A stretch of 64,000 nucleotides of DNA, from assembly GCA_010093605.1 (NCBI GenBank), contig MU004197.1:1364001-1428000 (forward strand), written 5' to 3'. A program made the translations under genes and the position numbers. This document shows positions 1,971 to 56,372 of the stretch, in pieces (within the stretch, counting starts at the first letter, position 1; each line of letters opens with the position of its first letter). This DNA is from Lophium mytilinum. Lineage: Eukaryota. The notes under the pieces were generated by a model, which saw only the letters and a list, made by a program, of their open reading frames with translations, had not been told where the DNA came from and did no database searches.

Positions 1971-2378
1971 AGCTGCTGAACTTGAAGCTTCCAGCAACGT
2001 AGTGGATAGGGCTAGAATTAGCAACCGTGAGCTTCAAATAGCAGCGTCTGAGGTGCTCAAATATACTGTCAAAACTTCAAGTGCGATGTCAAAACCTCAA
2101 CTGTTTAGACTGAACTTGAGGAAAATGCAGCCATTCTCGACATTCCTGAAGCTATCCAACGTGCTATTAGGGCTGCCGTTCGCTCACCTCGTTGATCCGG
2201 TGATTGAAGTGATTAACGTTAACGTTAATTACTTTAACCGGACGGTCTACTAAAATAAGGTTCACTTACTTAATCTAGAGAGGCCCATTAATTAAACTAT
2301 TAAAGTGCTGTTAAAGCTATTATAAAATTATAGATTTTAGCTACTAGAAGTTAGTAATTCTAGGTTTTTATTATAGCT

Positions 2379-2380
<2 letters not shown>

Positions 2381-2410
<30 letters not shown>
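2381..2410. repeat. (CTA)10 microsatellite
   Basis: Directly visible. Confidence 0.9.
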
Positions 2411-2949
2411 AATATTAAGAATAACCCTATATTAACGCGCCTTACCTTTATAGTACCTAAGGGATTAGTATAGATAAAGAAGTTAAGTAGATTAGGTAAG
2501 TTAAAATCTTAGCTATATCTATATAATATTGCTAAGAATATCTATATTAATTAATTAATTACTTTAACTATTAATATTAATTAATTACTTAATAAAGAGC
2601 TTTACTAACTAAGGCTTTTAATTACTTAACGGGGAGGGGCCGTTAATAGTAAGTAATTAAACGGTAGCCCTATATATTATATATACTATAAGAGCTTATA
2701 GTCTAATATAGAGTATATAGAGCTTTATATATACTAAATATTAGTTTAAAATAGTCTAGAGCAGTCTACTAGATTTACTATAAATATAAATATTCTATAT
2801 AGCTCTTCTAATTTAGAAATATATTTATTAAAGCTAAAATATTTAAAAAATACTTTTATATGCTAGTGTTTAAGGTTCCCTACTATATTATTAGAATTAT
2901 AAACACAATATTAAAAGCCTAGAAGCGTAAACTAGTTAGTATAAGTATC

Positions 2950-4275
2950 TAGCTATTCTTAGTAAGTTTAAAGCTATTTAACGCGCCGTATTTCCCGTAA
3001 AACTACTAGCTCTAATTAGGAGTGCGTTTATTATTATATTTACTATTATTATTCTTAAAATAGTATAGGGTAGTATACTATATTTACTATATACGCAGAA
3101 CTTATATACTACCTATCTAGTCTTAAATGTAAAGCTTTTTATTCTATTTACACTAATTTCCTAATAATAGTAAAGCTATTTAACGCGCTATATATACTAT
3201 AAGCCTATAGGTTCTAATCTAGGGCTTATAGATATATATCTTTACTATAAATATTTTTAGAGCAGTATAGAGTAGTACGCTATATTTACTATTTATATAG
3301 AACTTATATTTAAGCTTTCTACTTTAGAGTTTAAAGCTTTTTAGCCTATTTATACCTATTTCTAATAATTTTAAAGCCCTTTAATGCTAGAAATAGTATA
3401 GAAGTATAGGTTCTAATTTAAGATATATAGATACTTATATTTACTATAACTATTTTTAGAATAGGGTAGAGTAGTCTACTATACTTACTATTTATATAAA
3501 GCTTCTATATAAGCTATTAAATCTAGAATATAAAGCTTTTTAATCTATATATACCTGCCGTTAATACTTCTAAAGCTATTTAACTTAGTATATATAGTTT
3601 AGAAGTATAGTATTTAATCTAGGGCGCGTATATATTTATATTAAATATAATTATTCTAAGAATAGGGTAAGGTAGTCTACTATACTTACTATATCTATAA
3701 AACTCCCTTTTAAGCCCTATACTTTAGAATATAAAGCTATTTAATTTTTACTACGCTACTTTTAATAATTTTAAAGTTATATAATATACTATTAGTATTT
3801 AGAAAAACTAGAGTCTAATATCTAGCCTAGAGATTATTACGTTTACTAAATTTAATTTTAGAATAGCGCGGGGAGGTATACTATATTTACTACGTCCGTA
3901 AAACTCTTATAAGAGCCCTCTACTTTAAAAGGCAAGGTAATTTAATAAGTTCCCGGCTACTTCTAGTAATTCTAAAGCCCGTTAATACGCTATTTATACT
4001 TAAGAAATAGAGTATCTAATTTAGGCTATATAGATCTTTATATCTATTAGATTTATTTTTAAAATAATATAGAGCGGCACGCTATATTTACCGCGTATAT
4101 AAAACGCGACTATAAATTATCTAATATAGGCTATAAAGCTAGTTAGTATAGTATTATAATAGTAGAGAACTAGAGGCTAATATAGAATATAAACGCCTTT
4201 ATATTATATTCTCTCTTTTTAAGAATAGTATAGAGAGGTATACTATACTTACTATATATATAGAACTTTATTATA
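2950..4275. repeat. RIP-mutated tandem array of about 201-bp units (last spacing 161 bp)
   Basis: The anchor GTAGT-n3-CTATA(T/C)TTAC (with variants) occurs at 3070, 3272, 3471, 3672, 3873, 4074 and 4235. Confidence 0.8.
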
Positions 4276-4279
4276 ATAT

Positions 4280-6232
4280 AAAATCTTAAGACTTTAACAT
4301 CCTATGCTCTAGATTTATTCTAAGAAGAGCTACCTCTAACGCCGCTGTACGGCTATTAAAGCCTCTATTTCTATTCTTTATAATATAAGGTCTTAGGAAT
4401 TTAATATTATACGCACGGTATTATACCCTTATAAGCTACCTTAAATAGTACTAGATAGCTATTAAAGTCTACTAATTATACTATATCTAATATAAGGCCT
4501 TTATACTTTAATATTATATATACCCCTTTTAACTTTCTTATAAGCTACTCTAAATGCTATTAAAAATCTCTAAAAATAATATAATTCTACCTTATTTAAT
4601 ATAAAGTCTTAAAACCTTAATATTCTATTTAAATTACACTTATAGTTATAGGCTACCTTAAACGCTATTAAATACCCCTTAAAACCCTATAGATCTATCT
4701 AATTTAATATAAAGCCCTAAAACCTTTATATTCTATTATATTATACTTATAGTTATAGGGTACTCTAAACGCTATTAAATACCCCCTAAAATGCTGTAAT
4801 TCTACTCTATTTAATATAAAGCCTTAAAACCTTTATATCCTCTTTAATTATACTTATAGTTACGGGCTACCTTAAATGCCGCCATACACCTATTAAGATC
4901 CCCGGATACTATCCCTTATAATATAAGCTTGTTGGAATTTTATATTATATGCACGGTATTTACGCCCTTATAAGCTACCTTAGATAGTACTAAACTACTA
5001 TTAAAATACTATAATTCTACCTTATTTAATATAAAGCCTTAAAACCTTTATATTCTATTTAACTTATATTTATAGTTACGGGTTACCTTAAACGCCGTTA
5101 TATACCTATTAAAAGCCCCTAATTCTATCTCTTATAATCTAAGGTTTTAGGAATATAATATTATATACACGGTATTTACGCCCTTATAAGCCACCTTAAA
5201 CGGTACTAAATAGCTATTAAACTACTATAGTCTTGCCTCTTCTAATATAAAGCCTTAAAACCTTAACATTAGAAGCCTAATATCTATACCCCTTAAGCTA
5301 CCTTAAACGACCTTAAAGACCCCTTAAAACGATGCAGGCTTATAGAGAACTAGGGGAGCTAAAGTAGGGTGCATTTACTTTAACATTACGCACCCAGCAT
5401 CCCATCTATCATGAGCCACCTTAAACGCTGCTAACTACCTATTAAGAACCCTTTTTACACAAGACTTCTACCTCGAGGAGCCACCTTAAACGCCAACAAC
5501 TAGCTATTAAAAGCTCGAAATCAAGCAGCTTCCAATATAAATCCATGAGACTCTAACATCGCGTGCAACACATTTACGCCTCGAGGAGCCACCTCAAACA
5601 CCACCAACCAGCTATTAAAGCCCTAAATCAGGCAGCTTCCAATATGAATCCATGCAACTTTGACATCGTATGCACCCCTTTTTAACCTCGATGTGCCACC
5701 TCAGACGCCGCTATTCATAGGGTAAAAGCCCCCAATCCGGCCCCTTCCAATATACGCTCTTCAGGCTTTGACATCGTGAGCACCAGATTCACACCTCGAT
5801 GAGCCACCTCGAATGCCGCTATTCACATGTCAAGAGTCCCCAACCAGCCCCCTTCTAACCTCAATGAGCCACCTCAAACACCGCTGTCACATGTCACAAG
5901 CCCCCAATCAGCCCACTTCCAATGTATACTCTTCAGACTTTGACATCGTGAGCACCAGATTTGCACCTCGATAAGCCGCCTCAGACAGTGCCAACTAGCT
6001 GTCAAAAGCTCGTATGCACCACATTTTGACCTCGATAGACCACCTCAAACACCGCTATTCACATGTCAAAAGCGCCCAAACAGCCCCATTCCAATATATG
6101 CTTTTCAGACTTTGACAACGTGTGCACTAGATTCACACCTCGATGAGCCACCTCAAACACCGCCAACTCGCTGTCAAAAGCCCCGAATCAGGGTGCTTGC
6201 AATATGAAGCCTTGAGACTTTGACATCGCGTT
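4280..6232. repeat. Tandem array of about 108-bp units, roughly 18 copies including partial ones; left half RIP-mutated
   Basis: AATATAA anchors (one variant) near 4382, 4489, 4598, 4706, 4814, 4920, 5028, 5136 and 5244. In unmutated copies TTCCAATAT lies at 5530, 5637 and 5745, and CTTTGACATCG at 5658, 5766, 5938 and 6217. Confidence 0.85.
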
Positions 6233-14158: not shown

Positions 14159-14575
14159 ATGGCACCACGACGTAAGGCTGCCACCGAAGCTGCAAAGGCG
14201 TCGGCTGCGCTAAAAGCTGGAAGATTCAGGTCCACATATGGAGTACCCACCCCGCGCCAACCTTCTCCTAGTCCCCCACTCGCGCCAAAAACTCCTACGC
14301 CTATCAAGAAGGCCAGGAAGGCGCGGGCGGCGGAGACTCGTCGCCAGAAAAACGCACGGATGGTCAAAACGTGGGCCACGAGACGTGCAAACGCGGCGGA
14401 AGCGGCTCGGCAGAAGCAAGAAGAGGAAGAGAGCGACGCGGCAGAGAGGGAGTCGCAGATAGACGAGAGGGATAACCGTGCCGCGTTTAGAGAGTACTAT
14501 CGTTCGAGGAACGCGCTGATTCTCAGGATAAGAGCGGATATGCGGACTGCGAGGAGGCTTGAGAGGAACAGCTGA
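14159..14575 (+). CDS. Small basic hypothetical protein (138 aa)
   Basis: Clean ATG ORF, K/R/A-rich, with a charged helical C-terminal half. No recognised domain. Confidence 0.55.
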   Translation: MAPRRKAATEAAKASAALKAGRFRSTYGVPTPRQPSPSPPLAPKTPTPIKKARKARAAETRRQKNARMVKTWATRRANAAEAARQKQEEEESDAAERESQIDERDNRAAFREYYRSRNALILRIRADMRTARRLERNS

Positions 14576-14677
14576 AATGCTAGAAAGGGGGTTGAAGGCA
14601 AGGCAAGTGCCCGTGGTTAGGATACCTTCATGTGTAGCTCTTATAAAGCTGTCTATTAGCGCTAACACCGAGTTTAG

Positions 14678-15560: not shown

Positions 15561-15913
15561 ACCTATTATGTAACGTTTGTTCCACCGCAATGTCTAATAT
15601 CGCAACAATGCTAGCTACCGAAAACACGAAACATTAATCCTTGTCTCTAGTCGTATGGAAAAGATAGAATATGAACGACGAGGTTCCACGGTTATCTATG
15701 GGCATAGACAATGCTAACATTCACATTGTGCATAACATAGGTTTAGACGCAAATGATAAATATGTTGCGACCACGTCACCCCAATACTCCCCAACTTCAC
15801 CCAACTTCTGAATTCTAGGTCCTCACCGCCTGTCGAACCTTCCTAGCTTCTAGCGATCTTCGACATCAACGATTCATTCGAACATACGTCCAACCTCTAT
15901 AACGACGACTAGA

Positions 15914-16330
15914 ATGGCGTCGAAGATTACCAGCTCCAGCGCGCTTGAGGCCGCGTTCCCATCGAGCACCACTACCCCCACCCAGACGCTGTTGTCGGCG
16001 CCGAATTCAAGTGCCATCGCGCTCATCACAGCCGCTATCATTGTTGTAGTGCTGGCGACCGTTGTTATCGTTGCCTTGGTCTGTGTTCTTCGCAGGCGCA
16101 AACGCAAGGCACGCGCCAACATGGAGCGCGGTTTCGAGCGCGAGTCGGGATTCAAGACAGTCCCGCTCCAGAACCTGGTCGGGACCAAGATGGCCCATGT
16201 ACTGATCAAAGATATCCCATCCAAGCATCCATCTTCGCCGAAGCATGATCCTCGGTTCGTGATCGGCGACGATGGCGATTCCGATGATGAGAGCAAGGTC
16301 CATCACGACCCCAAGAATGGGGACCGATAG
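15914..16330 (+). CDS. Small single-pass membrane protein, tandem paralog 1
   Basis: S/T-rich N-terminus, hydrophobic helix, CVLRRRKRK, then ERGFERESGFKTVPL. The motif is shared with the three neighbours. Confidence 0.75.
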   Translation: MASKITSSSALEAAFPSSTTTPTQTLLSAPNSSAIALITAAIIVVVLATVVIVALVCVLRRRKRKARANMERGFERESGFKTVPLQNLVGTKMAHVLIKDIPSKHPSSPKHDPRFVIGDDGDSDDESKVHHDPKNGDR

Positions 16331-16678
16331 GTGGCCGATGAGAGCAGCTAATACGGCTTGGTTAAAAACTCAAATACGTATCGACAACGACCACTTAGTA
16401 CCGTGTTTGTATTAGGTGGCTAAAATCTAAAGAGACCTTCGCACTACCTATGAGCCGCGCGAGGGCGAAGAATGAAATCCCTTTCTCCTGATTTGTTTAT
16501 GCACAATACTTTCGTGACATTGAAACTTTCAGTGTAAGTTACGTTTCCATCTAGAGGTATACACAATGCTAAAATCCCCAATGTTTAGATATGTATCCAG
16601 GAAGCAAACAATATATAAGTTTCAACTAAACCTCTGGAAATACTCCCAAACCGGACTATTCTATCGAAATTCAAAGCA

Positions 16679-17056
16679 ATGGGACCAATTCCGAACCCGC
16701 CAACCGGCTTCAAGCTTCCGCGGCCGCTCAATCTCACATCACCAGAGTCTGACACCCTGCTCCCACCCAGCAACTTTACCGAGCTTTCGCCTGATTTTCT
16801 GGGACCATTCTTAGATCCTTCTTCGATTGAATACGTGTACAGTGAGCAGTTTCTCGACATAGTGATTATCCTCGGTGTCGTAATGTTCGTGTTCGTGGCT
16901 GCGACCTTGTGCGTGCTCTCGATCTGTGCTTACTGTAGACGTAGGAAGTACGCTGAGGTGGACGCTGAAAGTGGTCTCGAGCAAGACTTGGGCTTCAGGA
17001 CCGTCCCACCGAGATGGTTGAGAGGCGCTCATACAAACCCGTGCTTTTATAGATAA
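16679..17056 (+). CDS. Small single-pass membrane protein, tandem paralog 2
   Basis: TM helix, CAYCRRRK, then ESGLEQDLGFRTVPPRWLRG. Confidence 0.7.
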   Translation: MGPIPNPPTGFKLPRPLNLTSPESDTLLPPSNFTELSPDFLGPFLDPSSIEYVYSEQFLDIVIILGVVMFVFVAATLCVLSICAYCRRRKYAEVDAESGLEQDLGFRTVPPRWLRGAHTNPCFYR

Positions 17057-17796
17057 AAGGTGATCTCCGATTGGTCTTCGGCGATGAAGAAGACTCGCAT
17101 GCCGATGATTCCCGATCCCAGCGCCAACAGGTTGGCTATTGAGAGAGCGGAGACGCGTCCTCGAAGAAAAATGGCATCTTTCCAGCGCCAACACGGACCG
17201 ATTTCTGTTGCTAGGTGAGTGAGCCCTAGAAGGGTCTATGCGCTGGCGCGTGCAAATGAAACTTGATTTCAATTTCCCCGCAACCGGAACAACCACAATT
17301 CATGCTTCATCATCATCGATATCTCGATCGTTCCATTTAACTCCACCTAAATCACTAGATATGTATCATATTGTTTCCATTACCATCATCGTCACCGCTC
17401 GCTCTTCTTTGTCTGCCAATGTTCTCTGAAATTTCTGACTTTTTTTTCCGGATCCTTCACATTGCCTTCGGACTTCGTTCATCTCTCGTGTCTCATTTGC
17501 CCCGTCCTCTATGCGATCCCACATTGTAAGTGTCTTTCTCACAGCGAACATTCCATGCTTGTCTATAATTGTACAATGTTTACGTCTTTTCCGCATTGTT
17601 CAAATACGTATCTTGGAACGAAATAGTATATAGCTTGCACCTGTCACTACAAACGCTCATCAACTCAGTCTTGTCTTTCCAGTTTAGGATCCATAGAACC
17701 AAAGTTTCTCTGTTCCTAGCTATCAGTCAAGCAATTGAAACGTTCCTGTTTCATATCTCAAACCTGGAACACTTCCACTCAACCACGCCAACAAGC

Positions 17797-18147
17797 ATGG
17801 AAACCCACTTCCACCGCCCAGGCGAGCTCCAATCCACCGAGGCCCCGTCTCCCACTCCTACCATTAATCCCGGACAGCGATTCCTACATGATGCTCAATA
17901 CCGGACTGTGGTGCTGGTAGCTGCCGCCGCTATTGCGGTGCTCCTAGTAACCATAGGCATCGTAGTTTGGGTCTGCGTCTGCCGCAGGCGTAAGCGAAAA
18001 GCGCGCGCTGTCGCTGATGTAGAGCGCGGCTACAAGAACCGAACAGGCTTCAATTCCATCCCACTCCACTGGCTCAAAGGCCCTGGAGGAAAGCCGGCCT
18101 CTAACCAAATAGGACCACACCATGGCTCCAAACCTGGTGGCCGATAG
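17797..18147 (+). CDS. Small single-pass membrane protein, tandem paralog 3
   Basis: First ATG at 17797. TM helix, CVCRRRKRK, then ERGYKNRTGFNSIPLHWLKG. Confidence 0.75.
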   Translation: METHFHRPGELQSTEAPSPTPTINPGQRFLHDAQYRTVVLVAAAAIAVLLVTIGIVVWVCVCRRRKRKARAVADVERGYKNRTGFNSIPLHWLKGPGGKPASNQIGPHHGSKPGGR

Positions 18148-18726
18148 GTGAAGAGCTAAGGGGTTAGAGCCCCCTTCGACTGACAGGGTGCGATATTCGC
18201 ACCCGATCACTATGTGTTAGCCTATCGGGACCCTAACATGTGTCGCGCTGCCTATGAGACGCGCTAAGGTAAACAACGAACCACTTTCCCTCCGAACTTA
18301 AGTTCCATGCAGTCCTGATGTGAAGTCTTTCCAGTGTCATAAAACATACCTTTCTAAACTTTCATACCCACTTTGTTCTTCCGCCATGTCTAGAACTCAA
18401 CACCGTTTACTGTGCCGGGACACTTCTTTTCTCGTGTCTAGCCTTTCATTGCCTGTACCAGCATTGGGTGAGTATATGAACATTGGGTACCCATTCTTGC
18501 CTAGATTCAGAACACTAATAGTCACATTGTGCAGATACAATATAATCTGAATTATAGGTATATATATCTTATCCACACCTCTACAAGCGCTTCGTACTTC
18601 ATTGACTGTTTTCGAAACTGGGAACCACATGTCAAATTGTTCCACCTCCAGCTTTTCAAAAGTCACAAGATTTACCCCACAATCGTGAACGCCTTGGAGG
18701 CCTCCACGCCGTCCAAGCTGGTCACA

Positions 18727-19029
18727 ATGACCACGGACTTCCTTCGACCTCGTTCCACCGAGGTCGCTTCAGCCACACCCACCTCCACGCCAGGTGCCTC
18801 GCCAGGCAAGTCTGGATTGAACCGCAACATCGCCATCGTTGTCTTCGCAGTCCTCCTTACGACCGTCATCGTTGTGGTTCTCTGCATACACCGCAGGCGC
18901 CTGAAGAAGGCGGAGGCCGACATTGAGCGCGGATACGAAGACGAATCCGGGTTCCACTCCATCCCGCTGCATTGGCTTCAAGGGCCTGGAGTGAACCGCA
19001 CTCCTTCTTCACCGACGCCGAATGCATAG
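18727..19029 (+). CDS. Small single-pass membrane protein, tandem paralog 4
   Basis: First ATG at 18727. TM helix, CIHRRRLKK, then ERGYEDESGFHSIPLHWLQG. Confidence 0.75.
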   Translation: MTTDFLRPRSTEVASATPTSTPGASPGKSGLNRNIAIVVFAVLLTTVIVVVLCIHRRRLKKAEADIERGYEDESGFHSIPLHWLQGPGVNRTPSSPTPNA

Positions 19030-19405
19030 AGGTAGGAAACCTTATTCGTAGTTCCAACTCATCTGCGAGAAAGTGGGTGCGAAATACCCACCCTGGACCT
19101 GCCACCGCCGCTGTGAGGCAATTAGTATCTGAACAAGCCTTTGAGCTGCCCCTACGACGCGCTAAGGTAGACAATAAACCACATTCCCCCAAACTTCCTG
19201 TACCATGCTCACGTGATATTGCCAGTGCTTCATGCTATACAGAAGACCCCAGTCTGTCAGAAATAAAATGAAAGATACCAAAACCCACTCTATTTCCGAC
19301 CCATGCCACGTGGAATGCTAACAAGACATCCTCTAGATATATAATTACCTCGCTGCCCCAACTCCTCTTCTGCTTGCCCAACACCACTGCCATGAGCGCC
19401 CCTAG

Positions 19406-20131
19406 CTAACTGCCACCAGCCGCCCCAAAAGATAGTTCACCAACTCCCACCCCAACCGGCCCAACCAACCTACCCGCAACCCCCCTCTCCATCCCCCACA
19501 CCTCCCCCAGATACTCCAACAATCTCCTCCTCGCCACCCCAACCGCACAAATCCTATCCACCTTCTCCCTCACCGACTTGGCCATTAGACTCTCCCACAA
19601 CATTACCCCATTATCATTGGGCGGGTGGGTCCCCTGCTTAACCTCAGCTTTCGCCTCCAACACCCCATCCCTCCTCCCCTTCGCCTCCCCCACCTCCCTC
19701 ACAATCTCCGCAATGTACGACGCAACAAACTTCTCCGGTCCGAATCCATGGCGCGCGAGCAAGTCGTCCCACCGCTGCCACGTCGCGGGCAAGTTATAGC
19801 GATCCAGCACCGGGAATGTCAGACACAGGGCCCAGAGATGGCGGAAGAGGGTGATGCGGTCGAGTGCGCGGGCGTGCGCGGAGTCGAGGGATGAGCTGTG
19901 CGAAAGGTCGCCCACCCGGCGCTGGCGGGAGGTGTTGAGGGTGTGGAAGCCGGGGAGGGTAGGTGGGGTAGAGGAGTAAGGGGAGCGCTTCAACGGTGGG
20001 AGAACCCTCCCACCCGGGAAGTCGAGACGGCGTTTCTTGTGCGGCGGCTGGGGAATTGATGGGTCTGGAGATGCTGGGTCGGGTTTGAGGAGGCGGGGGT
20101 CGATGGGCTGTGGCGGGTTAGTAGGTGACAT
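19406..20131 (-). CDS. Hypothetical protein (about 241 aa)
   Basis: Long ORF with a Pro-rich N-terminus, an NLS-like KKRR and a helical C-terminal half. The ATG at 20131 was taken as the start. Confidence 0.65.
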   Translation of the reverse strand: MSPTNPPQPIDPRLLKPDPASPDPSIPQPPHKKRRLDFPGGRVLPPLKRSPYSSTPPTLPGFHTLNTSRQRRVGDLSHSSSLDSAHARALDRITLFRHLWALCLTFPVLDRYNLPATWQRWDDLLARHGFGPEKFVASYIAEIVREVGEAKGRRDGVLEAKAEVKQGTHPPNDNGVMLWESLMAKSVREKVDRICAVGVARRRLLEYLGEVWGMERGVAGRLVGPVGVGVGELSFGAAGGS

Positions 20132-21177: not shown

Positions 21178-22976
21178 TCAATGAGCTTCTTCCTTCTCAA
21201 GCCCACGTTCACCGTCATACCTCCTCCTCACCCTGAACGGAATCGTCTTGTTCGGCCGCAAGACACCGAGCCCTAACTTCCCCATGTCCATATCCACTGA
21301 CTTGTTCATGATCTCCAAGTCAAAGCGATCCGCCATCAGCGCAATTCCGAGGATGATGATGTTCTTTGCCAGGAAGCGTCCAGGACAGATCGCATTTCCG
21401 CCTATCAGTGTTAATAGTGTGTCCACTGAGTCAGAAAACAGGTACTAACTACTAACCTCCATAGGGTAACCAGCTTCCGTCCAGTCCCTCCAGCGAGAAC
21501 TCTCCCTTCGCATTCAGGAACCGATCTGGCCAGAACGTCTGTGCTGGGTACGAGGGATGCGTCTTATTCCACACGCCGGGGTCCATATGAGAGACACGCG
21601 AGTTGACCATCGCGATCCCGCCTTTCGGGAGCATCCACTGGCCGAGCGGAGTAGCAGAGTGAGGCGAGTTGGTGGCGAAGTAGGAGTTGGTGTAGACACG
21701 GAGGGTCTCGGCGTAGATGGAGGAGAGAAGGGGGATCTGCACCAGAGCTTTGAGGTCGAATCCTGAACCATCGATGCGGCAAGTACCATCCGCGAGAACA
21801 GCGCGGATGCGCTCCAGGAGTCCCGATTCCGTGAAGAGGTGGTATGTCGCCATTACAGTCGAAGGGACAACGTTTGCGACGGACCTGTAGCCATTAGTCA
21901 ATGCCCATACTGCGAAAGGGAAGGCAGAAAATGAAGGGATAAAGAGCCCAACTTACGCCCACACAAGCCCCAGATCGACTGCCGCCATCGCATCCTCGTC
22001 CAGGCCATCCACAATTCCCAGTGTCTCCTGCCTGTCTCTCATAAGGCTCGAGCCCCACGCCAGATCCCCGTTCACTTCAGTCCCCTCCTCACACCGCTCC
22101 CTAGCATACCTATGCCACTTGATCATCATCGCCTTCAATCTCTCCCTCCGCCTCGTCGCCCTCGGCATCAGAAACGCGGGAATTCCGTGTCCGAACCACG
22201 GTATAGTCTTGTCAAATTCCCAGAACTCATCGACGAAACTTGGATTGAGTTCCAAGAATGCTGGCCCCGCTAAAGCTTCCATAACCGATCTCCCAATCAC
22301 CTCCACCATCAGCGTGAAGAGATCAGGCTTCTCCACCCATCCGCCCACTACCCCTGTTTCAAGCCCTTTCACCCGGCCCAACATCCCTCCAACCGTTCGC
22401 GTCGTGAACGGTCCCAGCCCCACTCCCGTCAGCCCGGTCAGTAAGACCGAATGCGTGATGTAGCCCACCCGATCCTTCTCCAGCACCGTACTGCCCGAAT
22501 GTGGCTTCCGAAACGGGCCAGAGTCGTCGGCTCGATAGACCTTGAGCGCGGCGGAACGCATGCCGAAGAAGTGATCCAAGACGTAGACATACAAGGCCAT
22601 AGGGCTAGCGAGGGCGGGAGATTTCCAGAGGGCACGAATGATAGAGGGGTCTTGCAAGATGTAGACAGGGGTGACGACGAGGGTGAGGCGGGAGCAAGTT
22701 AGGTGCCCGGCATAGGTGCTGCGGAAAAGTAATGAGTGCGGGGACTTTGGAAAAGGGATTGAAGATTGGAGAAGTGGGATGTACTTACCTAGCTCGTCCG
22801 AGAAAGCTTGGGCCAATAATGAGGAGGGAGAGGAGGTGGCCCAAGAACGGGATGAAGGTTGGATAGGTTGGGGGGAGTTGGTTTGGGGAGACGTGGCGGC
22901 GTTGGTAGAGGTATTTCAGCCATTCTATTGCGTAGTTGACGAGGAGGGCAAGGATGAGAGTGATGGCGATGTTCAT
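21178..22976 (-). CDS. Cytochrome P450, CYP7/prostacyclin-synthase-like (4 exons)
   Basis: N-terminal anchor followed by a Pro-rich hinge, ExxR (AETLR), PDRF, and the heme motif PYGG|GNAICPG split by an intron. The I-helix region reads ANVVP. Confidence 0.9.
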
Positions 22977-23973
22977 GGTAGCTGCACTCTTCGTGTCGCC
23001 GAAAGCCTGGCTTAGAAACGACCGCTTGAGTGGCTGGTAATGGCCTTCTGTCTCGTTCAAGCTAGTGAGAGACATGCTTTGGGAAGAATGAAGAAAGTGG
23101 CTTGAAGTAGAGGTTGGTGACGAGGAAGAGACTCGATATCACACGAATCTTGACTTGATAGAAGTGCTAAGCAGCAAGGCGTTGATGAACCTTACAGCAA
23201 TTACCTTGGCCGCGGTGCTGAGAACACTTCAGCAGCGGCTCGGTGGTGGCGAAGTATTGTTGAGGTTGAGGTTGAGGCTGAGGAGTGTGTGAGTGAGTGT
23301 GGAAACTGATAATAAAGAAAGGAGCAGATATATGCCTCGTGGCTACGAGATTGCGTAGGGTCCCATCGAGGTAGCTGGATACGGAGTTGATGCCGCTGCT
23401 GGCCACTTCCAGGATTCACCATATGCGCCCCATCGGCAAAGACCGACTTACTGTGGCCCATGCCCAGTTGTTGCTATCTGCACACGTACTCTGTAGTGAA
23501 TGTTGAGAAATGCACATGTCTATGCAAGGACTTGATGAGTTATTTGTTGATGGGCAATACTATACCTCTTGTGCTCGTGCTAGCATCTATATGTAGCACT
23601 CTTCCGGCTTCGATGTCTTCGCCACACTCTAATCAATACCTGGAATCCCTCGAATGGCATGTACCACCTGAGTCTCCTTCTTAGGCTAATGATGGATTCC
23701 TGCACGTGGCGGCCTTTTGCACCTTCGCAGGACAAAGTTTTATATCCTGGGATAATGGTATGTAGCTTCCGTAAGACAACCTCGCAACAAAGAAATTGAG
23801 GAAACACTTATCCAACTCCCTTTATTGAGCACCAGGCCGTGACCACAGGTACCGGGTAACACCCAGCGGGTATGTACTCCTTGAAGTGACGTCGGCAGCC
23901 CGCATCAAGCATCAGCCGACGTTCCTCATAAGACTGCGCCGCGAGAACCACTCTCGTAACACCCCTCGACATT

Positions 23974-25137
23974 CTATCCCGTCGTCTCGTCCCTCATCTG
24001 CTTCAAAAACCCAATCACCGGCGCCCCACCCGTCCCCTTCACCTCCCCAACCCCCTCCTCTTTCCCATCTTTCTTCGCCGGCAAAACAACATACCGCGTA
24101 ACCACAATAATATGCCCATTCCTAAACACCTTCAACGCCTCAAGGCAACCCCGATACGCAGCAGCCAACCCGCCCTCCATTCCCCTTTCCTCCACAAACC
24201 GCCTCACATCCGCCACAGCACCAACATCCTCCAAAAACCTCCGATGCGCTCCAGGCATCAGCGCCCTCATCTCGCTAACAACACACGCCGCCTCCTCACC
24301 ATGCTGAATCCCAAGCACAACATCGCAAAGCTGGAACAGGGAGCTCTGCGCCGCGCTCCCGCCGCCATACCGCCCTACCCTCTCCTCTGTCCCCGTGGTA
24401 GCGCCAACGTCGTAGACTAACCCGTTGGGGAGACTCCGGCTACCTGCGAGGAAGGGGCGGATATCGCAATAGAAGCGGCGCGGGTTGAGCCGCTCGTGCA
24501 TGCGCTGCAGCAGCGGCGCCAGCTCCGTCAAAACATCTGTTACCGCTTGCAGATTCGTAGTCAAAGCTTCAACATCGGTGCGACGAACCGCTTCGATGGC
24601 GCTGAGAAGGTTGGGGATTATCGGCGCGCCGCGGGATTCGATCGCGACGGAGACCATGTAGAACCAGCTCTCGTCTTCTGTGGCTGTGAAGGTATGCAAC
24701 GCTTTTAGATTGGCTGGGTCGTTTAGCGGCTGGCCTTGAAGGGGACGGAAGTTCCAGAGGCATAGTGCCGCGTATGTGATGGTTGGGGGTATGTCGAGCT
24801 TGTCGCATACCTCTAGCAATGGGATTGAGAGGCTGGCGGGAAGCTTTTCGGCTGGGGGTTGCTCGCCCCAGATGTAGGCATGGGCGAGGAAGGTAAGAAG
24901 AGTGTAGGCGCGCTGGTACTCGGGTACTGTGTTCAGGTTGGTTGTAGAAAGAGTTGGCAGGGCATGGATGGAGGAGCGGATGATTTTCGAGGAGATGTGG
25001 CGGGGGAGGTTGGCGATGGTGGATTCCCACGGGGTGTAGTGAGGATCAGAGAGATGGGCTAGAGGCGGGTTTGGAGGAAGGAAGCCAGTGGTAGCGCTCA
25101 TGCCGTAGTCTTCCAGTTTGGGGATTTGGGGATGCAT
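23974..25137 (-). CDS. Indoleamine 2,3-dioxygenase family protein (intronless)
   Basis: Motifs TGFLP, LAHAYIWG, DESWFY, GGSAAQSSL, MPGAHRRFL, the proximal His segment NGHIIVVTRYV, and KGTGG..FLKQMRDET. Confidence 0.95.
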   Translation of the reverse strand: MHPQIPKLEDYGMSATTGFLPPNPPLAHLSDPHYTPWESTIANLPRHISSKIIRSSIHALPTLSTTNLNTVPEYQRAYTLLTFLAHAYIWGEQPPAEKLPASLSIPLLEVCDKLDIPPTITYAALCLWNFRPLQGQPLNDPANLKALHTFTATEDESWFYMVSVAIESRGAPIIPNLLSAIEAVRRTDVEALTTNLQAVTDVLTELAPLLQRMHERLNPRRFYCDIRPFLAGSRSLPNGLVYDVGATTGTEERVGRYGGGSAAQSSLFQLCDVVLGIQHGEEAACVVSEMRALMPGAHRRFLEDVGAVADVRRFVEERGMEGGLAAAYRGCLEALKVFRNGHIIVVTRYVVLPAKKDGKEEGVGEVKGTGGAPVIGFLKQMRDETTG

Positions 25138-48789: not shown

Positions 48790-51700
48790 TTACACATCTC
48801 CAATACTGATCGTCGTCGGCTTGTTATCCTGTCCTGGCACAGGCGCTCTCATGCCGAATCCCGTATCGGCACCCATGTTGAATACTTGCCGCTCCAAGAC
48901 AAGTAGATGCGCATCATACAAGGTGAACCTCTCCGGATACCTCTTCACGTAAGGCAGACCCTTCTCATAGATCAACCTAAACGGGCCCCCCATCTTGCGA
49001 ATAATATCGATATCTGCTGGTAGATATCCTTTCCCTTCCTTCCCTTCGTTCGGGTAGACATCGTCCTCGATTTGTATTCCATTCTGTCTAGCAACACGGT
49101 GGATGTTCCTATCCAATGCATCAGGGTACTTGACGTTGTTAGTCTGTTCTATCGGAGCCCATGACGGCTCTCCGCACTTCTCTTGGAGCTCGACGATCTT
49201 TTTGAGGAGGCGATCGTGCTCCGGAACTGCTTCGTGGTAGAACATGTTGCTGTAGAACTCGCGGCCATAATTGGCCTTCGAGATTTCATGATCGCAGTGC
49301 TGTTTGAGAACTGCCTTCTCGGTTTGAAGGGTAGTGACAGCGTTCTCGAGTGGAAGCTGCCTGCCTCGGAGCTCAGAAGTTGTCTTCTCCAAGGCCTGGA
49401 TGCGGATGTATTGCTTAGCAATGATGTCCGTATCGCGGGTAGTATTGATCCGGAGTGACTGGAGCTTCTCGTGTTCAAGTGTCGCAATCTTTGCTGCCTT
49501 GATGCGAAGCTCGTTCTCAATCACAGCGATCTTACGAAGGAGTCCCGGTTGTGCCGCTTGAGCGGTTTCCTCCTTCATGAGCATCTTGCTCTCCTCGTCA
49601 ACGAGGTTGGAGATCTTCTCGTCCTTCTCTTCAAGCTCCATCTTGAGCTTGAGGACCTGTTGTTTCATTTCTGAGATCTGATCACGCGCTTTTATCTCAG
49701 CGTCAACCCGAGCTTCTGATTGTTCAGCCAAGAAATGGACGGCCTCGGATGGAATATCCCTCAGCAACTTCGCCATGTCCTTGACCAAGCTTCGGCTGGA
49801 CATCAAGTCTTCCTGACACTCTTTGAGAGCTTCTGCCAGCTTCTGTATTTCGTGCCGCGCCTCCTGGTATTGGGTATTGACGACGATATACCCATTCTGA
49901 ATGTCGCCGATAGCCGACTTTCGATTCTCCTCCAAATGCAGCATATCCTCGATATCTTTCATCGCATCGTCCACCTTCTTCTCCAGAATCTCGTTCTTCT
50001 TAGTCACTCGGGCATTCTCTTCCTGGAGTGCCTTCACAAAGACTTTGAATCGTTCGTCGTCCCCAAAGCAGTTTCGATATGTTTGCACCTCCTGATGGAG
50101 GAAAGCACGCTCTTCTTCGGCTTTGGTGATTTCGGCCTTCGACTCTTCGCGCAACTGCTTCAACTCCCACTCAAGTCGCTCGATCTCCAGATCGGCTTTC
50201 TTCTCCTGATCTTCGCTCTGCTTGCGGTTGATCTTCGTCGCTTCGACGAACTCTTTAGTTAGCTTCTTGGTTGGCTCCATCTCTTTTTCGAGGATGGCAA
50301 GCTCTTTGTTCTTCTGCTCCAATTCCGACTGGCCCTGAATAGCCAGCTCCTGGAAGTGTGCCTTTTCCTTGCGAGCTTCAAGGACCTTCTTGCGGAGAAG
50401 AAGGTTCTGCTGGTCCTTCTTCTCCACTTCATCTTCCAACTCGGACACGTTCATGGTCGTGCGATAGGCCAGTCGGTTGAGTTTCTTGATTTCTCGCTGT
50501 GCCGTCTCGAGCTGCCGTTGTAAGTCCACGGTTGATGGGAGTTCTGATCCCTCGTCATGCTCTTCGTTTCGATCAGCATGCTCATCGTCATGGCTACTAG
50601 CGTCATCTTCGTCATCTTCAGAACCGTCCTCTTCACTATCAGAGCCCTTGCCGTCACTAGCAAGATCCTCATCGTCGAGGTCATAGTCGTCGCCCTCAAT
50701 ACCAGTGCCCTCGTCGTTTTCCAGCTCCCGGTCGAGAAGTTCGTCCTCATCTTGTACAACCTCCTCAACATCTTTATTGACCGAGGTCTCCTTTTCGTTC
50801 GAGGGGCTACTGCAGCTAGTGTCTGTTTTGTTGAGAGAGCCCGAGCAATAGCTAGCTTTGTTCACAGAAGACGCGTAACTGATGGCTGCATCTTCTGTCG
50901 CCGATTTCGTGAGCTGTTCAGGGCTGAAGATGATATCGAACGCAGCCTGCTCTTTCCGCATGAACGAAGGGTCAGCCTGGGCGATCATCTCCAGCCTGTT
51001 ACGCATAAAAGCGGGCAGTTCGGTTGGCAATCCGAAATCATCAGATGAGCCGAGATTGGAGCTGTCCTCTTCGTTGAAATCTTCGTCGCTCTCATATGAG
51101 AAGCGATTTGCTTCTTCGCTGCAGTCGTTCTCATTCTGGACGTGGTCGAGGATGTGCTTGGCGGCATGAGCGAGTTCCTCGGGGTTCTCCAGGATGTATT
51201 CACGCTCTTTTTGGATGTCCTCGGACTCCTGGCAGATCTCGAGGTTCTCTTCCTCGACATCATCAAGCTGTGGATGTGAAAGGTCCAGGAGGACCACAGA
51301 GATGCTGAAGGGCTTCCAAAGAGTAAGAGCCAGTGATCCGGATTCCGCCTTCCAGATTTCCAACCGAAGAAGCTCGTACTCGTCCTGCTCCCATTCGACG
51401 AAGAGACCAATAGAGAAGTTTGAGAAGTCCAGAATGTTCTCGATGTTCAAAACTGGGAGCGTGGCCTTCTGAATCGTAGTCTTGGGGGATGGTATGAAGG
51501 TCAAGGCAGGAATGCCCATGTACTCGGGCTTTCGTGCAGGGCCGTAGGGGACACGAGAGACAGAATAGGGAATGTAAGGGGCATTGACTGTATGAAGAGC
51601 CAATGCAGCTTCTTGCTCACGTTCGAAGATGGCGAACAGTCGAGCAGAGGCGGTGAAAGCTTCCAACAAACCCTGGAAATGGGAGAGGGAAAGGTAGACC

Positions 51701-52293
51701 TCAACATTCTTCGCCAACGGGATTGATACGATCACCGGACGAGGAGGGCCGAATTGAGGTCGATACACTATCAAAGACTTGCAGGCGACCAGAGCCAGAG
51801 AGGCAGCCGGCACATGGTTTACCGCAGTCTTGAAGAGAGGTGTAGAGTCCGTAGAGGAGGAGGTAGAAGTCGGATCGGTAAGGTGAATGGATTGGTCGTC
51901 GGTCCAGACGAGGTCATCAGAGTTGAGCTCCAGGCAAGAGATGGTCTCAATGGTGGTATTGGATACTGCATCATGTAAGCTACCTTCAGAGTATTGCAGG
52001 TTATAACACTTACCGCTGGAAAAGTAGTGACTACACGATTCCTTGATCATGGAGCCGAACGACTCGCCCTCAAGGTAGTGAAGGTATGGAACTTCTCCAT
52101 TGAGCATCCTAATCGAGGTTGATCGAGAGGACTGCTGGCTGTAGCATCGCTGCAGACGTTCGGTTGTGATCGTGGCACCCTCAATGCGGTTGAGTGTATG
52201 AGGTGATGCTTTTGAAGGCCTTCCTAGCTTTAGGAACTCGTGCACCAGGAAGGCCGATGGTACAGCGAGCAAGAAAATATCTAAAGAATCCAT
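48790..52293 (-). CDS. Large hypothetical protein with acidic tract and long coiled coil (1167 aa)
   Basis: Uninterrupted 3.5-kb ORF with a D/E-rich middle and an E/K/L-rich C-terminal half. Confidence 0.85.
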   Translation of the reverse strand: MDSLDIFLLAVPSAFLVHEFLKLGRPSKASPHTLNRIEGATITTERLQRCYSQQSSRSTSIRMLNGEVPYLHYLEGESFGSMIKESCSHYFSSGKCYNLQYSEGSLHDAVSNTTIETISCLELNSDDLVWTDDQSIHLTDPTSTSSSTDSTPLFKTAVNHVPAASLALVACKSLIVYRPQFGPPRPVIVSIPLAKNVEVYLSLSHFQGLLEAFTASARLFAIFEREQEAALALHTVNAPYIPYSVSRVPYGPARKPEYMGIPALTFIPSPKTTIQKATLPVLNIENILDFSNFSIGLFVEWEQDEYELLRLEIWKAESGSLALTLWKPFSISVVLLDLSHPQLDDVEEENLEICQESEDIQKEREYILENPEELAHAAKHILDHVQNENDCSEEANRFSYESDEDFNEEDSSNLGSSDDFGLPTELPAFMRNRLEMIAQADPSFMRKEQAAFDIIFSPEQLTKSATEDAAISYASSVNKASYCSGSLNKTDTSCSSPSNEKETSVNKDVEEVVQDEDELLDRELENDEGTGIEGDDYDLDDEDLASDGKGSDSEEDGSEDDEDDASSHDDEHADRNEEHDEGSELPSTVDLQRQLETAQREIKKLNRLAYRTTMNVSELEDEVEKKDQQNLLLRKKVLEARKEKAHFQELAIQGQSELEQKNKELAILEKEMEPTKKLTKEFVEATKINRKQSEDQEKKADLEIERLEWELKQLREESKAEITKAEEERAFLHQEVQTYRNCFGDDERFKVFVKALQEENARVTKKNEILEKKVDDAMKDIEDMLHLEENRKSAIGDIQNGYIVVNTQYQEARHEIQKLAEALKECQEDLMSSRSLVKDMAKLLRDIPSEAVHFLAEQSEARVDAEIKARDQISEMKQQVLKLKMELEEKDEKISNLVDEESKMLMKEETAQAAQPGLLRKIAVIENELRIKAAKIATLEHEKLQSLRINTTRDTDIIAKQYIRIQALEKTTSELRGRQLPLENAVTTLQTEKAVLKQHCDHEISKANYGREFYSNMFYHEAVPEHDRLLKKIVELQEKCGEPSWAPIEQTNNVKYPDALDRNIHRVARQNGIQIEDDVYPNEGKEGKGYLPADIDIIRKMGGPFRLIYEKGLPYVKRYPERFTLYDAHLLVLERQVFNMGADTGFGMRAPVPGQDNKPTTISIGDV

Positions 52294-53478
52294 GACAGTA
52301 GGTTGTGGCTGCGCCGTGGAGAAGAGTAGGTATTGGTGTGACGATGCAGTGTGAGGTGGTGGGTTGAGGGAGGGTGTGGAAATGAAGAGGTCGACAGCAA
52401 CGACGGAGGTTTAAATAAGCAGCTCGAAGCAGAACCCGCGCAGGCAGGCCGTTGAGCTCGCCCGCGGCGGGTAAACACTCCAGGTAGTGAATGTTCACAG
52501 GCAGCAGGCGGGGCAGAGAGGCGGATTGTTTGATGGTGAGAATCGCCAAATACTCGCACCACTAGAGAGGAATACGTCATAGAAACGCAACCACTTGGCA
52601 AGCAGATTAGATTTCAGTACGGTGATTAGGAAGTGTTGATCTAAAGGGATAAATAGCGTATGTTTATATGGTGGAAGAGGGAGTCTTTGCTTGAAAGATC
52701 AGCTATAAAGGTGTCCCTGAGATGATGTAGAGCTATAGATTTCTCTAAAAGATATGCATATGAAGTCGGAGGCCTGTACAATATGTATGTGCGCAGCGGT
52801 GTATTGAGCATGATACATGTCCTGCGAACAAAAGGAGGCCTGAAGGCTGTAGGGCGTACACGCAAAGTGGATGTTTGGTAAAGTCTACGTGCAGCCAGAA
52901 CCTCCCTCGTGCTACCGATATTTAGAAGAGAACGTTATTAGGGCTACTTTTCCTATCGGCTCGTGGACAAGAGCCTCATGAACTGCCTTCTGCTGTAGTG
53001 GTTCAGTGGTCGAAGACCCTCAGGCGCAACTTCAAGGTTAGCAGAGCAATCGCAGATAGCTTCTGTTTCGTGGCCGCGACCTAAGGGTACAAATCATTAG
53101 TGTGTAAAGCTGTTCTATTTACTTGCCGGACTGTCTCGCATGTTTGCATGTGCAGAATGACCTCAAGCTGAAAGATAACAATCAAAGACGCAAGCAGGCT
53201 CGTTTGAAATCGATGATAAGATCATGTGCTGGGAATACATTACTCCATATCACGTATAAAGGCGAGAGGTCGGGTTTTTATTTGATTTTTGAATAGGTGT
53301 ATGTATACTACAAGTGCAGCAAAAGCCTCTCACTACCCATATCGACACGCACGCTCATCAGCAAACTCCCACTCTGATCTTCTGCACGAGTTGAGGAACG
53401 CTGGAATATCCCGTTTCGTTTGGCCTAAGTCCTCTAGAGAGCATCACCATAACCCTCTTGGCACTTCTATTCGCATCA

Positions 53479-56372
53479 CTAGAGCTCCTCCTCGTCGTTC
53501 GCCTCCAATTCCTTCTCGTGGTCTTGCCAATTCTCTACCACCAAGCCTCGCCTCACTACTTCACTCAATACGAACGGTGTTGCCCGAGGAACCGCTCGGA
53601 TTGGCCTCTCTAGCTGGAACGAGTCGATCTTATCCTCTGGGTTGAGATAATCTGGGCGTGGGATTCCCGCTTGATCAAGGTGGAACTCTTCGTTGGTGCG
53701 ATCATCTTCAACGAAGTTCTCCATACCCTCAGGAACATGCTTTTGAATCAACTCTTGAGAGATTCCGGGGTCCTGCCCTGCCATTCTACGCACATGCATC
53801 CGCTCCGCTGCCTCGTTTATCTGCCGGAGAGCGGGGTCTCTGATCGGCTCAGGTTCCGGAGGGCCATGTATCTCTGCTTCTTGCGCCTCGTGGGGATCCT
53901 TGGACTCGAGGGTGAATTGCGGCTCATATATCCGAATATGCTCGGCCAGTTTCTCTGTCTCGTTTTTCTTCTCCCTCTCAAGGTCTATGAACTTCTTCGT
54001 GCTCTCGACTTCCTGGCTTTGCATCTGCTGCTTCGTGGCCTTGAGTTGTTCGTACAGAGGCTCTTGCTCTTCGGTCAACTGATCAACTCTGTCTCGCAGA
54101 CCATCGATCTGGGCCTGTGCCTTAGGCCCTATATCGATTATACCGTATTGTAGAGCCCAATGGTGTCTTCGCTCCCTCTCGAGCTCCGCGTTGCGAGTCT
54201 TGTAGTATAGGAACCGCAACCGGAAGTTATGGTAGATTGGGGTCATAGTCTCGATCATCGATTGAGCGGTCTGCTCCTTGAGCTCCCACTGCAAAACGAT
54301 ATCATCCAACTTCGAATTCCGGGCCTCCACTTCGTCGATCCACTTGTCCTTTGTCTCGATTGTTGCCTTTAGCTCACGAATCTGCTCATGAGCGGCTTCA
54401 AGTCGTCGCGATTTCTCTTCCGCATCTTTTTCTTCGGCTATATTCGAGTTGACGAAAGTCTCAATGTCCTTGTACTGAATCATGACAGCCTCTTCAAGCT
54501 GTGCAATACATCGGACAGGGTCGAACGGAAGCCCCTCGGCGTCCTCCAAGATGGTTCCATTGAACCAGTTTGCGGCGGCGACTTCCGAACTGATGTTCGC
54601 GAACACGCGCTCGAGTTGTCTTTTGAGGGATACAAGCGACTTCTTGGTTTCGCTTCGGCGAAGGGTATTTTCGGGCTCCTCAGCATCGCATCGGCTAATC
54701 GTGGCCTCGCGAGCTTCAAGCTCTTTTCGGAGCTTTTGGGTTTCATCCGAAGCCTCGTGGCACTCGGAGATCAATTGCTGGTTTCGCTCTTGCACGTACT
54801 TGATCCGAGAGTCAGACGTCTTAATTGCGAGTTCTGTAGCAATGACTGCGTTGTGATTGAGCTCGGATTGCTCAAGCGCGGCTTTCAGCTCGATCTTGAG
54901 AGCCTCCACTTGGTTCTCAAGATAGCCAAACCTCTCGTCGTTGATTTGTCCCATATCGTGGTTGTCTCGATCGGTAAGGGCATTGATTTGTCGCTGGAGA
55001 ATGGCTTTCATATTCTCAGCTTCCCGGCATCTCGTTTTCCATTTCTCTTTAGAAGCGCCCTTCTTCTTGTACGCATCTTGAGTCTTATCCAATTTCTCTT
55101 TGTAGTGGCGGAGCTCACGAGTATTGGCCGCAAAACCCCGATTGAACTCATACTCTAGATGCTCTTCCTGTTTCTTGATGTACGCATCGTCTTTCGCCTT
55201 CGACACCGCAGCCTTCTCCTGAGCATCGCTGAGTTGCTTATTCAGAGCATCGGTGGATGTATTGATCCTCCGTGAGAGAGCTGCAATCTCGGCGTCCTTT
55301 CCCCTGACAACGGTCTCCCAATCCTGTTTGCTCTTCGCGATTTGTCTTTTTGCCGAAGAGATGAGACGCTTTGCCTGATGCTTGTACCGCCTTGCAACAC
55401 GCACCACGTTCGTCATATCTTGTGCGACGACGGAGGGGGTCTCGGTGTTCAATAAGTCGCTGTCTGTCGACATCTCCTCGTCAGAGCAGTCCGTGGCGGA
55501 ACCAATAACAGCGGTTTCAAACCCCCAGGGCTTAGAATACATCTCAACTACAGTTGCTTCAGTGGGCATGACTGCCTCTGGAACAGTCCCGGTTGACATC
55601 TTTTCTCCGTCCGTGTCAGGCTCCAAGGCCCAGGGCACTGTGTCAGCTTCATCTCTACCGGCCTTCGTGTCGTTCCTCTTGCTCCCAGCAGTCGCGGTCA
55701 AGTACTCCTCGTCGTGCGCATGAGTGAGCGCAAACCGGATGTGACCACGATAGTCAGTGTCGACAGAAGAGATGCTGCCGGTGGATGTCACGATAGTGGG
55801 CAGGGTGGGCCAAGAGGAGGACCGCTTGACAGGGCATGGCGTTCGCGGAGAGGACGGCGGCGTAGTAGAGCTACAAGAACTGGGAGATTCTTGGACCGTG
55901 GAGATGGAGCCTTCGGCGGCAATGCTGCCATCAACCTTCTTCGAGACGGAGAAGTCAAGGCGATGTGCGAATATGATTGCGATGACAACAACGCGAAGCG
56001 ACGGATAGGTAGGGCGAGCTGGAGCCCCATGGGACAATGTTGTAGCATCGTTGATCGATGGCGAGGCTTCGCTGGCGCGAGGAGGCGTAGGGATTGGAAC
56101 TTGGTGGGACGGGGGGGCGTTGACTTGGTCTATTCAGTCAGCCTAGTTGAAACCATAGACCACACGCATAGACGCATACCGTCCTGCCGACTCTCATGAC
56201 GGACGCTCTTGATCATCGCGTCGAACGAGTCAAGCTGCGCCACAGAAAGCGAACCAGAGGTAGACTGCGCATTGCGAGATCGTTTATGCTGAGCAGATGG
56301 TGATGATGTTGACTTCAAGGAAGTAGGCCTCTTCCTCTTGAAGTGCTCTCGCAACTTCGTGCGGAGACCCAT
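53479..56372 (-). CDS. Large hypothetical coiled-coil protein (2 exons, about 950 aa)
   Basis: The 852-codon ORF is joined in frame to an exon starting MGLRTKLREHF by an intron near 56130-56178 (GTATGC..GCTGAC..TAG). Confidence 0.82.

Follow-up and report, generated by a model that had tools for sequence, protein, structure and literature searches.

The window analysed here, the whole 64,000-nucleotide (nt) stretch taken from contig MU004197.1 (C17) of the 43.4-Mb assembly of the fungus Lophium mytilinum, contains a tandem array of four small genes for single-pass membrane proteins. With high confidence these are real genes whose products have the N-terminus outside and the C-terminus in the cytoplasm, and the comparisons described below support an undescribed family under purifying selection with a narrow distribution (two close relatives seen). 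The reading we favour, offered tentatively, is that of an old tandem array of co-regulated, N-out, membrane-tethered adaptors.

A tandem array of four small membrane protein genes

An earlier analysis of the window from its letters alone (the sequence-only reading) had described four co-oriented, intronless open reading frames (ORFs) of 100-138 amino acids (aa), each with one transmembrane (TM) helix, a juxtamembrane cysteine and an RRR cluster, and lacking a cleavable signal peptide. These features were recovered in 4/4 ORFs (138, 125, 116 and 100 aa, all on the plus strand), and hydropathy agreed on the absence of a signal peptide. "Intronless" held for the coding frames, while an intron in the 5′ untranslated region (5′-UTR) is possible.

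15914..16330, plus strand: ORF1 (P0001), 138 aa; TM helix at about residues 38-58, C57, RRRKRK, motif ERGFERESGFKTVPL, longer acidic tail
16679..17056, plus strand: ORF2 (P0002), 125 aa; 60-aa N-terminus with sequons N18 and N32, TM helix at about 61-82, CxxC (C83/C86), RRRK, motif
17797..18147, plus strand: ORF3 (P0003), 116 aa; TM helix at about 37-59, CVC, RRRKRK, DVE, motif
18727..19029, plus strand: ORF4 (P0004), 100 aa; TM helix at about 35-54, C53, RRR, DIE, motif; nearest relative ORF3

Start-to-start distances are 765, 1118 and 930 nt. Only one hydrophobic segment is encoded by each ORF (start at residue 35-61; the best mean Kyte-Doolittle value over 21 residues is 2.9-3.2), preceded by 37, 60, 36 and 34 residues in ORF1-4 with a serine, threonine and proline content of 31-49%, and followed by a basic cluster with a cysteine 1-4 residues ahead of RRR. 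The net charge is greater C-terminal of the helix than N-terminal of it in 4/4 ORFs, and both N-glycosylation sequons of the ORF2 N-terminus are kept in its orthologue, which together indicate an N-out/C-in orientation and support the single-pass topology proposed by the sequence-only reading. AlphaFold2 (mean pLDDT 62) modelled one confident helix at about residues 40-60 and a tail with pLDDT <55; a complex prediction for an ORF4 dimer scored 0.04.

Chance occurrence was assessed in a 444-kb sample made up of the window and 380 kb of further sequence taken from this genome. One TM segment combined with a tribasic run was found in 5/627 ATG-initiated ORFs of 80-260 aa; four of these were the array ORFs, and the remaining one looks like the terminal exon of a gene for a transporter. 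The pattern GFx[ST][IV]P[LP] occurred in the sample solely in the four array ORFs.

A conserved cytoplasmic motif and member-specific outer parts

The motif E(R/S)G(F/Y/L)x4GFx(S/T)(I/V)P(L/P)x(W/N)LxG, noticed in the sequence-only reading, was recovered unchanged from each of the four proteins. In an alignment of the family the features common to all members are C, RR, E-x-G and GFx[ST][IV]P, and among distant paralogs hardly any part, if any, is better kept than the motif region (9-16/23 identities; for the helix, 2-10 of 19-23). Such invariant features are what one would expect if a short linear motif had one partner, and we think it slightly more likely than not that the GF motif is a partner-docking site.

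The outer part had been called variable and poorly alignable. This was true among paralogs, whose N-termini share 2/33 to 14/33 identities, but not between orthologues, where they are well kept (21/36 for ORF3, compared with 14/23 for its motif region); the outer part is hence member-specific rather than hypervariable. Its conservation in orthologues argues for a stable division of labour and not an arms race. The tail after the motif varies in length and frame among the ORFs. Past the ORF2 stop, at 17054-17145, another frame resembles the acidic tail of ORF1 (DLRLVFGDEED and DPRFVIGDDGD, respectively) and may be the remnant of a longer common tail; its flanks align no better than chance.

Selection, relatives and age of the family

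Selection was assessed in 34 codons of the cytoplasmic core for five paralogs, namely the four array members and a fifth on contig C23 (see below). The proportion of nonsynonymous differences (pN, 0.22-0.46) was below that of synonymous differences (pS, 0.59-0.89, near saturation) in 10/10 pairs, with a bootstrap share of pN ≥ pS of at most 0.027 over paralog pairs. Protein-guided alignment favours pN < pS for distant pairs; for the ORF3/ORF4 and ORF1/ORF3 cores the alignment is beyond question, and the former pair gave pS 0.74 and pN 0.22. The GC content at third codon positions of the array ORFs is in line with that of adjacent genes, and indices of repeat-induced point mutation (RIP) in the array equal the background, with no RIP signature.

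When 1.84 billion representatives were searched with a profile, 16 proteins were returned, of which ORF4 itself and seven others were inspected, so that the range of the family is a lower bound. Three of those inspected (P0006, P0007 and P0014) match the whole family, and all are proteins of Mytilinidion resinicola named uncharacterised; the other four are unrelated TM or repeat proteins. No homologue beyond M. resinicola was present among the inspected matches. Identity between orthologues is 52-63% for ORF1, ORF2, ORF3 and the C23 paralog, each against its M. resinicola counterpart: 85/134 residues for ORF1 and the N-terminal half of P0006, 77/129 for ORF2 and the C-terminal half of P0006 (with both sequon positions retained), and 60/116 for ORF3 and P0007. 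The accessions of P0006 and P0007 are adjacent, and no separate M. resinicola orthologue of ORF4 was seen. Identity between paralogs is mostly 24-46%, below the orthologue values. In the tree ORF1 paired with the N-terminal half of P0006 (90/95), ORF2 with the C-terminal half (100/100) and the C23 paralog with P0014 (100/100), while the order of ORF3, ORF4 and P0007 was left open. Because orthologues are closer than most paralogs and pair in the tree, the array predates the split of the two species.

The sequence-only reading had recognised no described fungal family with this motif, and this was borne out by searches for characterised relatives. The four ORFs matched no Pfam family at the cut-off and gave weak, TM-level matches only, as did sequences from the PDB; P0006 exceeds the EphA2_TM cut-off by 0.7 bit, through its helix alone. 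Word-based homologue searches gave 2/6052, 2/3844 and 1/8000 candidates and missed known members, which makes them weak evidence of absence. Among metagenome contigs 0/192 pattern matches were confirmed, and the one match among 53 viral contigs, of 18 residues in no open frame of 40 aa, was rejected. Four weak matches in the L. mytilinum genome (L006, L007, L013 and L091) proved to be unrelated proteins. No description of the family was found in the literature, a search that did not cover subscription journals and supplements.

Clusters of ACAAT and CAATG upstream of the array genes

For each ORF the 350 nt before the ATG were taken as the upstream region, 5-mers were counted without bias, and expectations were drawn from AT-matched tiles. 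The top 5-mers were ACAAT (14, against 2.7 expected) and CAATG (16, against 3.6 expected). At least three ACAAT were present in 4/4 upstream regions, compared with 5/142 AT-matched tiles and 4/96 pseudo-promoters, and the same richness was reached by 0/5000 Markov shuffles. The region before ORF2 does not align to the others (z 0.0-1.1), yet it contains a cluster.

15588..15729, no strand assigned: cluster upstream of ORF1; three ACAATG; overlaps a possible intron at 15653-15740
16503..16619, no strand assigned: cluster upstream of ORF2; GTAAGT at 16534; after the cluster, TATATAAG at 16612
17460..17600, no strand assigned: cluster upstream of ORF3; three ACAATG; GTAAGT at 17526
18447..18683, no strand assigned: cluster upstream of ORF4; intron-like stretch at 18468-18534 (GTGAGT..ACTAAT..TGCAG); TATATATA at 18559

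ACAATG forms the tail of the high-mobility-group (HMG) core A(A/T)CAA(A/T)G (PMC3730723), and ATTGTT is the site measured for Fusarium MAT1-2-1 (PMC4559316). In L. mytilinum the STE2 upstream region (L032) has four ACAAT; that of STE3 (L030) has no ACAAT and four TCAATA, one of them as CTCAATAG, which on the opposite strand reads exactly as CTATTGAG, the MAT1-1-1 motif of Penicillium (PMC10512297). The motif content of STE2 and STE3 suggests that mating-type motifs are readable in this genome. Separately, the ACAAT sites of STE2 and the TCAATA sites of STE3 mirror the two mating-type motifs. An HMG gene at C20:413000-424000 (L047, L048) lies about 3 kb from AP-endonuclease and COX6A genes, the usual mating-type (MAT) neighbourhood, and is probably MAT1-2-1; upstream of it, TTCTTTGT corresponds to the PaHMG5 site of Podospora in reverse. 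A search for an alpha-box gene matched nothing anywhere and is hence uninformative.

The upstream sites would most simply be bound by a sequence-specific factor of the HMG-box type, be it MAT1-2-1 or a Ste11-like or Rox1-like protein, and expression would then belong to a sexual or developmental programme. We regard HMG or sexual-stage control of the array as a serious possibility, somewhat short of probable. Several observations weigh against it. The promoters of ORF1, ORF3 and ORF4 are homologous (z 3.1-5.3), so the four regions are not independent, and the ACAAT motif was chosen post hoc. The array consensus is NCAATG, whereas the STE2 sites are mostly ACAATA/C, and the broader WCAAWG core is modestly raised (3, 3, 3 and 2, against a mean of 1.06). 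Eighteen equally dense windows occur in the 380-kb background, none recognisably preceding a mating gene. The region upstream of FIG1, read by eye, is without a cluster, and the DNA upstream of the C23 paralog has 0 ACAAT. A genome-wide search for a shared 22-nt element gave 24 matches against 11 for the control, and 5/17 of those checked are intron branch sites. About 9/22 CAAT cores lie at three homologous places adjoining donor-, branch- or acceptor-like sequence; sense-strand GTRAGT occurs in 3/4 upstream regions, against 43/382 tile-strands (11%); and intron patterns precede ORF4 (a strict, textbook example of 67 nt) and, in looser form, ORF1. As a separate observation, L094 (C14:72587) is a second, diverged FIG1-like gene.

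The splice-like sequences and the excess of GTRAGT indicate that a conserved 5′-UTR intron would account for part of the upstream conservation. It could be argued that such an intron, together with inheritance, explains all of it, and that the proteins are stress- or niche-specific and unrelated to sex; the intron patterns, the donors at homologous places and the clusters missing from the FIG1 and C23 promoters are in keeping with this. However, 53 intron-like stretches in the background are not rich in ACAAT (0.49 per 350 nt), indicating that splice signals alone do not enrich it, and about 13/22 CAAT cores lie away from splice-like places. Moreover, exact TATA boxes, present in 2/4 upstream regions (ORF2 and ORF4) compared with 16/284 tile-strands, are both downstream of the would-be intron. 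We consider this explanation rather unlikely.

A second cluster with PY motifs on contig C23

The sequence-only reading had not included the fifth paralog, this second cluster or the common upstream motif. The paralog (P0021) belongs to a group of five small ORFs, all in the same orientation and each with a single helix, that lie within 4.6 kb beside ORM1 and IEC3.

C23:565275-571599 (L028, L029), minus strand: cluster of five to seven small membrane-protein ORFs; 96, 107, 172, 186 and 152 aa, with ORFs of 94 and 133 aa on either side

PY motifs are found in three of these ORFs: P0021 ends in LPTY, as does its orthologue P0014, and two neighbours contain PPSY and LPVY/PPVY. Two C23 neighbours weakly resemble the family (HHalign 84% and 48%), while the other two are below 5%. 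The upstream regions of this cluster are CACAC-rich (19, against 3.0), which may reflect mere CA-rich 5′ leaders.

Rcr1 and Rcr2 of yeast, Comm of Drosophila and PRRG4 of human are small single-pass adaptors with PY motifs, for which the consensus is P/L-P-x-Y (PMC7401822). The array proteins could be derivatives of this kind, acting as adaptors or cargos of Rsp5/Nedd4 ubiquitin ligases, with the GF motif as a sorting signal and PY lost from the window copies. The PY motifs on C23 and the weak resemblance of the two neighbours suit such an origin, and it is possible that a PY-bearing Rcr1-like ancestor seeded the C17 array, its copies losing PY and keeping the GF motif. Against this, PY is present in 0/4 window proteins and 0/3 of their orthologues, the Rcr1 sorting motifs LxYYD and LxxPxxxVV in 0/7 proteins, the other two C23 neighbours show no resemblance above 5%, and no RCR family appears among the Pfam matches listed. 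As an account of what the array does, it is unlikely.

A proposed mechanism

In the favoured reading, that of membrane-tethered adaptors, the helix would act as a reverse signal anchor, N out and C in. The cysteine may be palmitoylated and, with the basic cluster, would keep the protein at the plasma membrane or in the late secretory pathway. D-x-E, found in 3/4 ORFs, may serve as an endoplasmic reticulum exit signal. G[FYL]x4GFx[ST][IV]P would be a short linear motif through which an otherwise disordered tail engages a single partner shared by all members in the cytoplasm, and the short glycosylated outer parts would let every member make a contact, or take up a location, of its own. The invariant tail motif is usable directly as bait, and the promoter signature predicts when transcripts should appear.

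The tail could instead belong to membrane-anchored receptors of selective autophagy, in which F-x-[ST]-[IV] following acidic residues would be an Atg8-interacting motif. The F-x-x-[IV] core ([WFY]xx[LIV] type) is found in 7/7 aligned proteins, the tail is modelled as disordered, and E or D lies upstream in most. Nevertheless, this core is a low-information pattern, common by chance; the extended xLIR pattern matches 1/7 aligned proteins; position +1 is often basic or proline; and the invariant G before and P after, as well as the E-x-G block, are left unaccounted for. Such receptors are quite unlikely. SxIP, RVxF and LxVP motifs did not fit on inspection.

A bolder version of the favoured reading would be a lineage-specific battery of membrane microproteins under mating-type or HMG control at mating-cell contacts, whose member-specific outer peptides would serve recognition or membrane contact and whose shared, hitherto undescribed tail motif would couple them to one signalling or fusion partner. 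We consider it a long shot. If true, the battery would be a candidate for the missing small components that serve recognition or fusion in ascomycete fertilisation, whose machinery is little studied in this class of fungi; if the HMG reading is true, membrane microproteins would join a short list of direct mating-type targets. General impact is limited by the narrow range and the absence of a tractable host.

A related possibility is that the proteins themselves are small fusogens like those of the FAST (fusion-associated small transmembrane) class, or direct cell-cell recognition molecules at fertilisation. Their size (100-140 aa; FAST, 100-200 aa), single helix, juxtamembrane cysteine and basic cluster (RRR in 4/4) fit the FAST outline (PMC7412057), as do the ectodomains of ORF1, ORF3 and ORF4 (37, 36 and 34 aa; FAST, <40), though not that of ORF2 (60). 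Three proteins show an amphipathic moment of moderate size beyond the basic cluster (0.54, 0.73 and 0.52 in ORF1, ORF3 and ORF4), which is also compatible, as are the possible mating-type promoter sites. Unlike FAST proteins, whose amphiphilic ectodomains resemble fusion peptides and carry a cystine loop, a myristoylated loop or a polyproline helix, the array proteins have no ectodomain cysteine pair or cystine loop, myristoyl site or fusion-peptide character; their ectodomains are hydrophilic and rich in S, T and P, and ORF2, with a moment of 0.26, lacks the amphipathic helix. They are products of cellular genes with no viral homologue, and the N-terminal myristoylation consensus matched 0/13 sequences. 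The resemblance to FAST raised in the sequence-only reading therefore extends to outline and not to homology. An ectodomain of 35 aa is, moreover, too short to span a cell wall. Fusogens are very unlikely.

Gene models and RNA coverage

ORF3 is annotated in public collections, while ORF1 and ORF2 are absent there as exact sequences. The database model P0006 fuses the counterparts of ORF1 and ORF2, and P0026 fuses P0021 with P0024 on C23. ORF1 has an in-frame stop in the window at the point where P0006 continues, and a fused protein would contain two helices, each followed by the basic cluster. We read both models as prediction artefacts. Gene finders fuse or drop such genes (two fused models, 2/4 ORFs missing), and families like this stay invisible. 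That the ORFs are relics in the course of decay, or that they are exons of a single longer protein assembled by splicing, as modelled in P0006 and P0026, would suit the fused models, the two missing ORFs and the differing tails, but is scarcely credible given the purifying selection, the intact orthologues, an ATG for each ORF, the annotation of P0014 on its own, the ORF1 stop and the conflicting topology of a fused protein.

RNA contigs from one run, which are spliced and cover neighbouring genes, left 6/8 bins over 15703-19438 uncovered and gave a depth below 1 in the two bins at 17104-18037, which is neutral on expression. Downstream "LPxRRAK" frames were rejected as a second exon because they lack codon periodicity, and upstream open frames were rejected as N-terminal extensions of ORF3 and ORF4, homologous DNA being read there in different frames.

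Other features of the locus and window

A non-coding block recurs in the 3′ flanks:

16439..16476, plus strand: ORF1 copy; repeat D3, 76% to the ORF3 copy; non-coding
18186..18319, plus strand: ORF3 copy; repeats D2 and D9; non-coding
19075..19217, plus strand: ORF4 copy; 52/73 identical to the ORF3 copy; non-coding

Mismatches between the ORF3 and ORF4 copies are distributed 8/7/6 over the codon positions, indicating that the block is not coding. RNA structure in it was weak, with an unfavourable covariation term and no Rfam match.

The array is flanked on the left by an F-box gene and a small basic ORF and on the right by a convergent ORF without a Pfam match. An RNA joint at 14601-14675 has ends that fit a GC-AG intron once shifted, so the basic ORF at 14159 continues. 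Elsewhere, an indoleamine 2,3-dioxygenase gene adjoins a spliced P450-like gene at 21400-25137 (minus strand), with RNA contigs covering both, and two adjacent long intronless ORFs (48790-52410 and 53479-56133, minus strand; about 1170 and 880 aa) are acidic and coiled-coil-like, with no Pfam match. The AT-rich stretch at 2001-6000 (GC 27-34%), with RIP-like dinucleotide indices of 1.58 and 0.46, is probably a mutated repeat.

Comparison with known systems

The sequence-only reading had also likened the proteins to animal transmembrane adaptor proteins (TRAPs). As with LAT, NTAL and PAG, there is no enzyme domain, one helix, a juxtamembrane cysteine and a docking tail (PMC3342071). Compared with those of TRAPs, the array ectodomains are longer (34-60 aa, against a few), CxxC is found in ORF2 only, the others having one cysteine or CxC, and the tails contain few tyrosines (0, 2, 1 and 1 in ORF1-4), none invariant. 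This likeness, too, is one of outline, lacking conserved tyrosine motifs and sequence homology.

Among fungal proteins, Neurospora LFD-1 is a single-TM plasma-membrane protein required in cell fusion (PMC6455062). It offers a functional analogy, being like the array proteins an ascomycete single-pass protein without a known domain; in contrast, it is widespread in Pezizomycotina, whereas the array family was seen in two close relatives, and no link in sequence was noticed, though the two were not compared directly. By language-model features, the nearest neighbours are clusters without a name in the ESM Atlas, of 113-131 aa and from Ascomycota (top scores 0.92 and 0.91), suggesting that the general build recurs in ascomycetes. 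These clusters have neither a Pfam family nor an alignment behind them, and the shared features (161 and 146 of 256) are below the level typical of one family, so they serve as leads only.

The closest functional parallel is offered by the Rcr1 class. That class (PMC7401822) differs from the window proteins, which have PY in 0/4, no Pfam or sequence match to it, half the size and a tandem arrangement. The two are alike in small size, one helix and short linear motifs in a cytoplasmic tail, and LPxY is conserved in the C23 paralog; condition-specific expression would be a further likeness. By this analogy, the array proteins would most plausibly work like Rcr1-class small adaptors.

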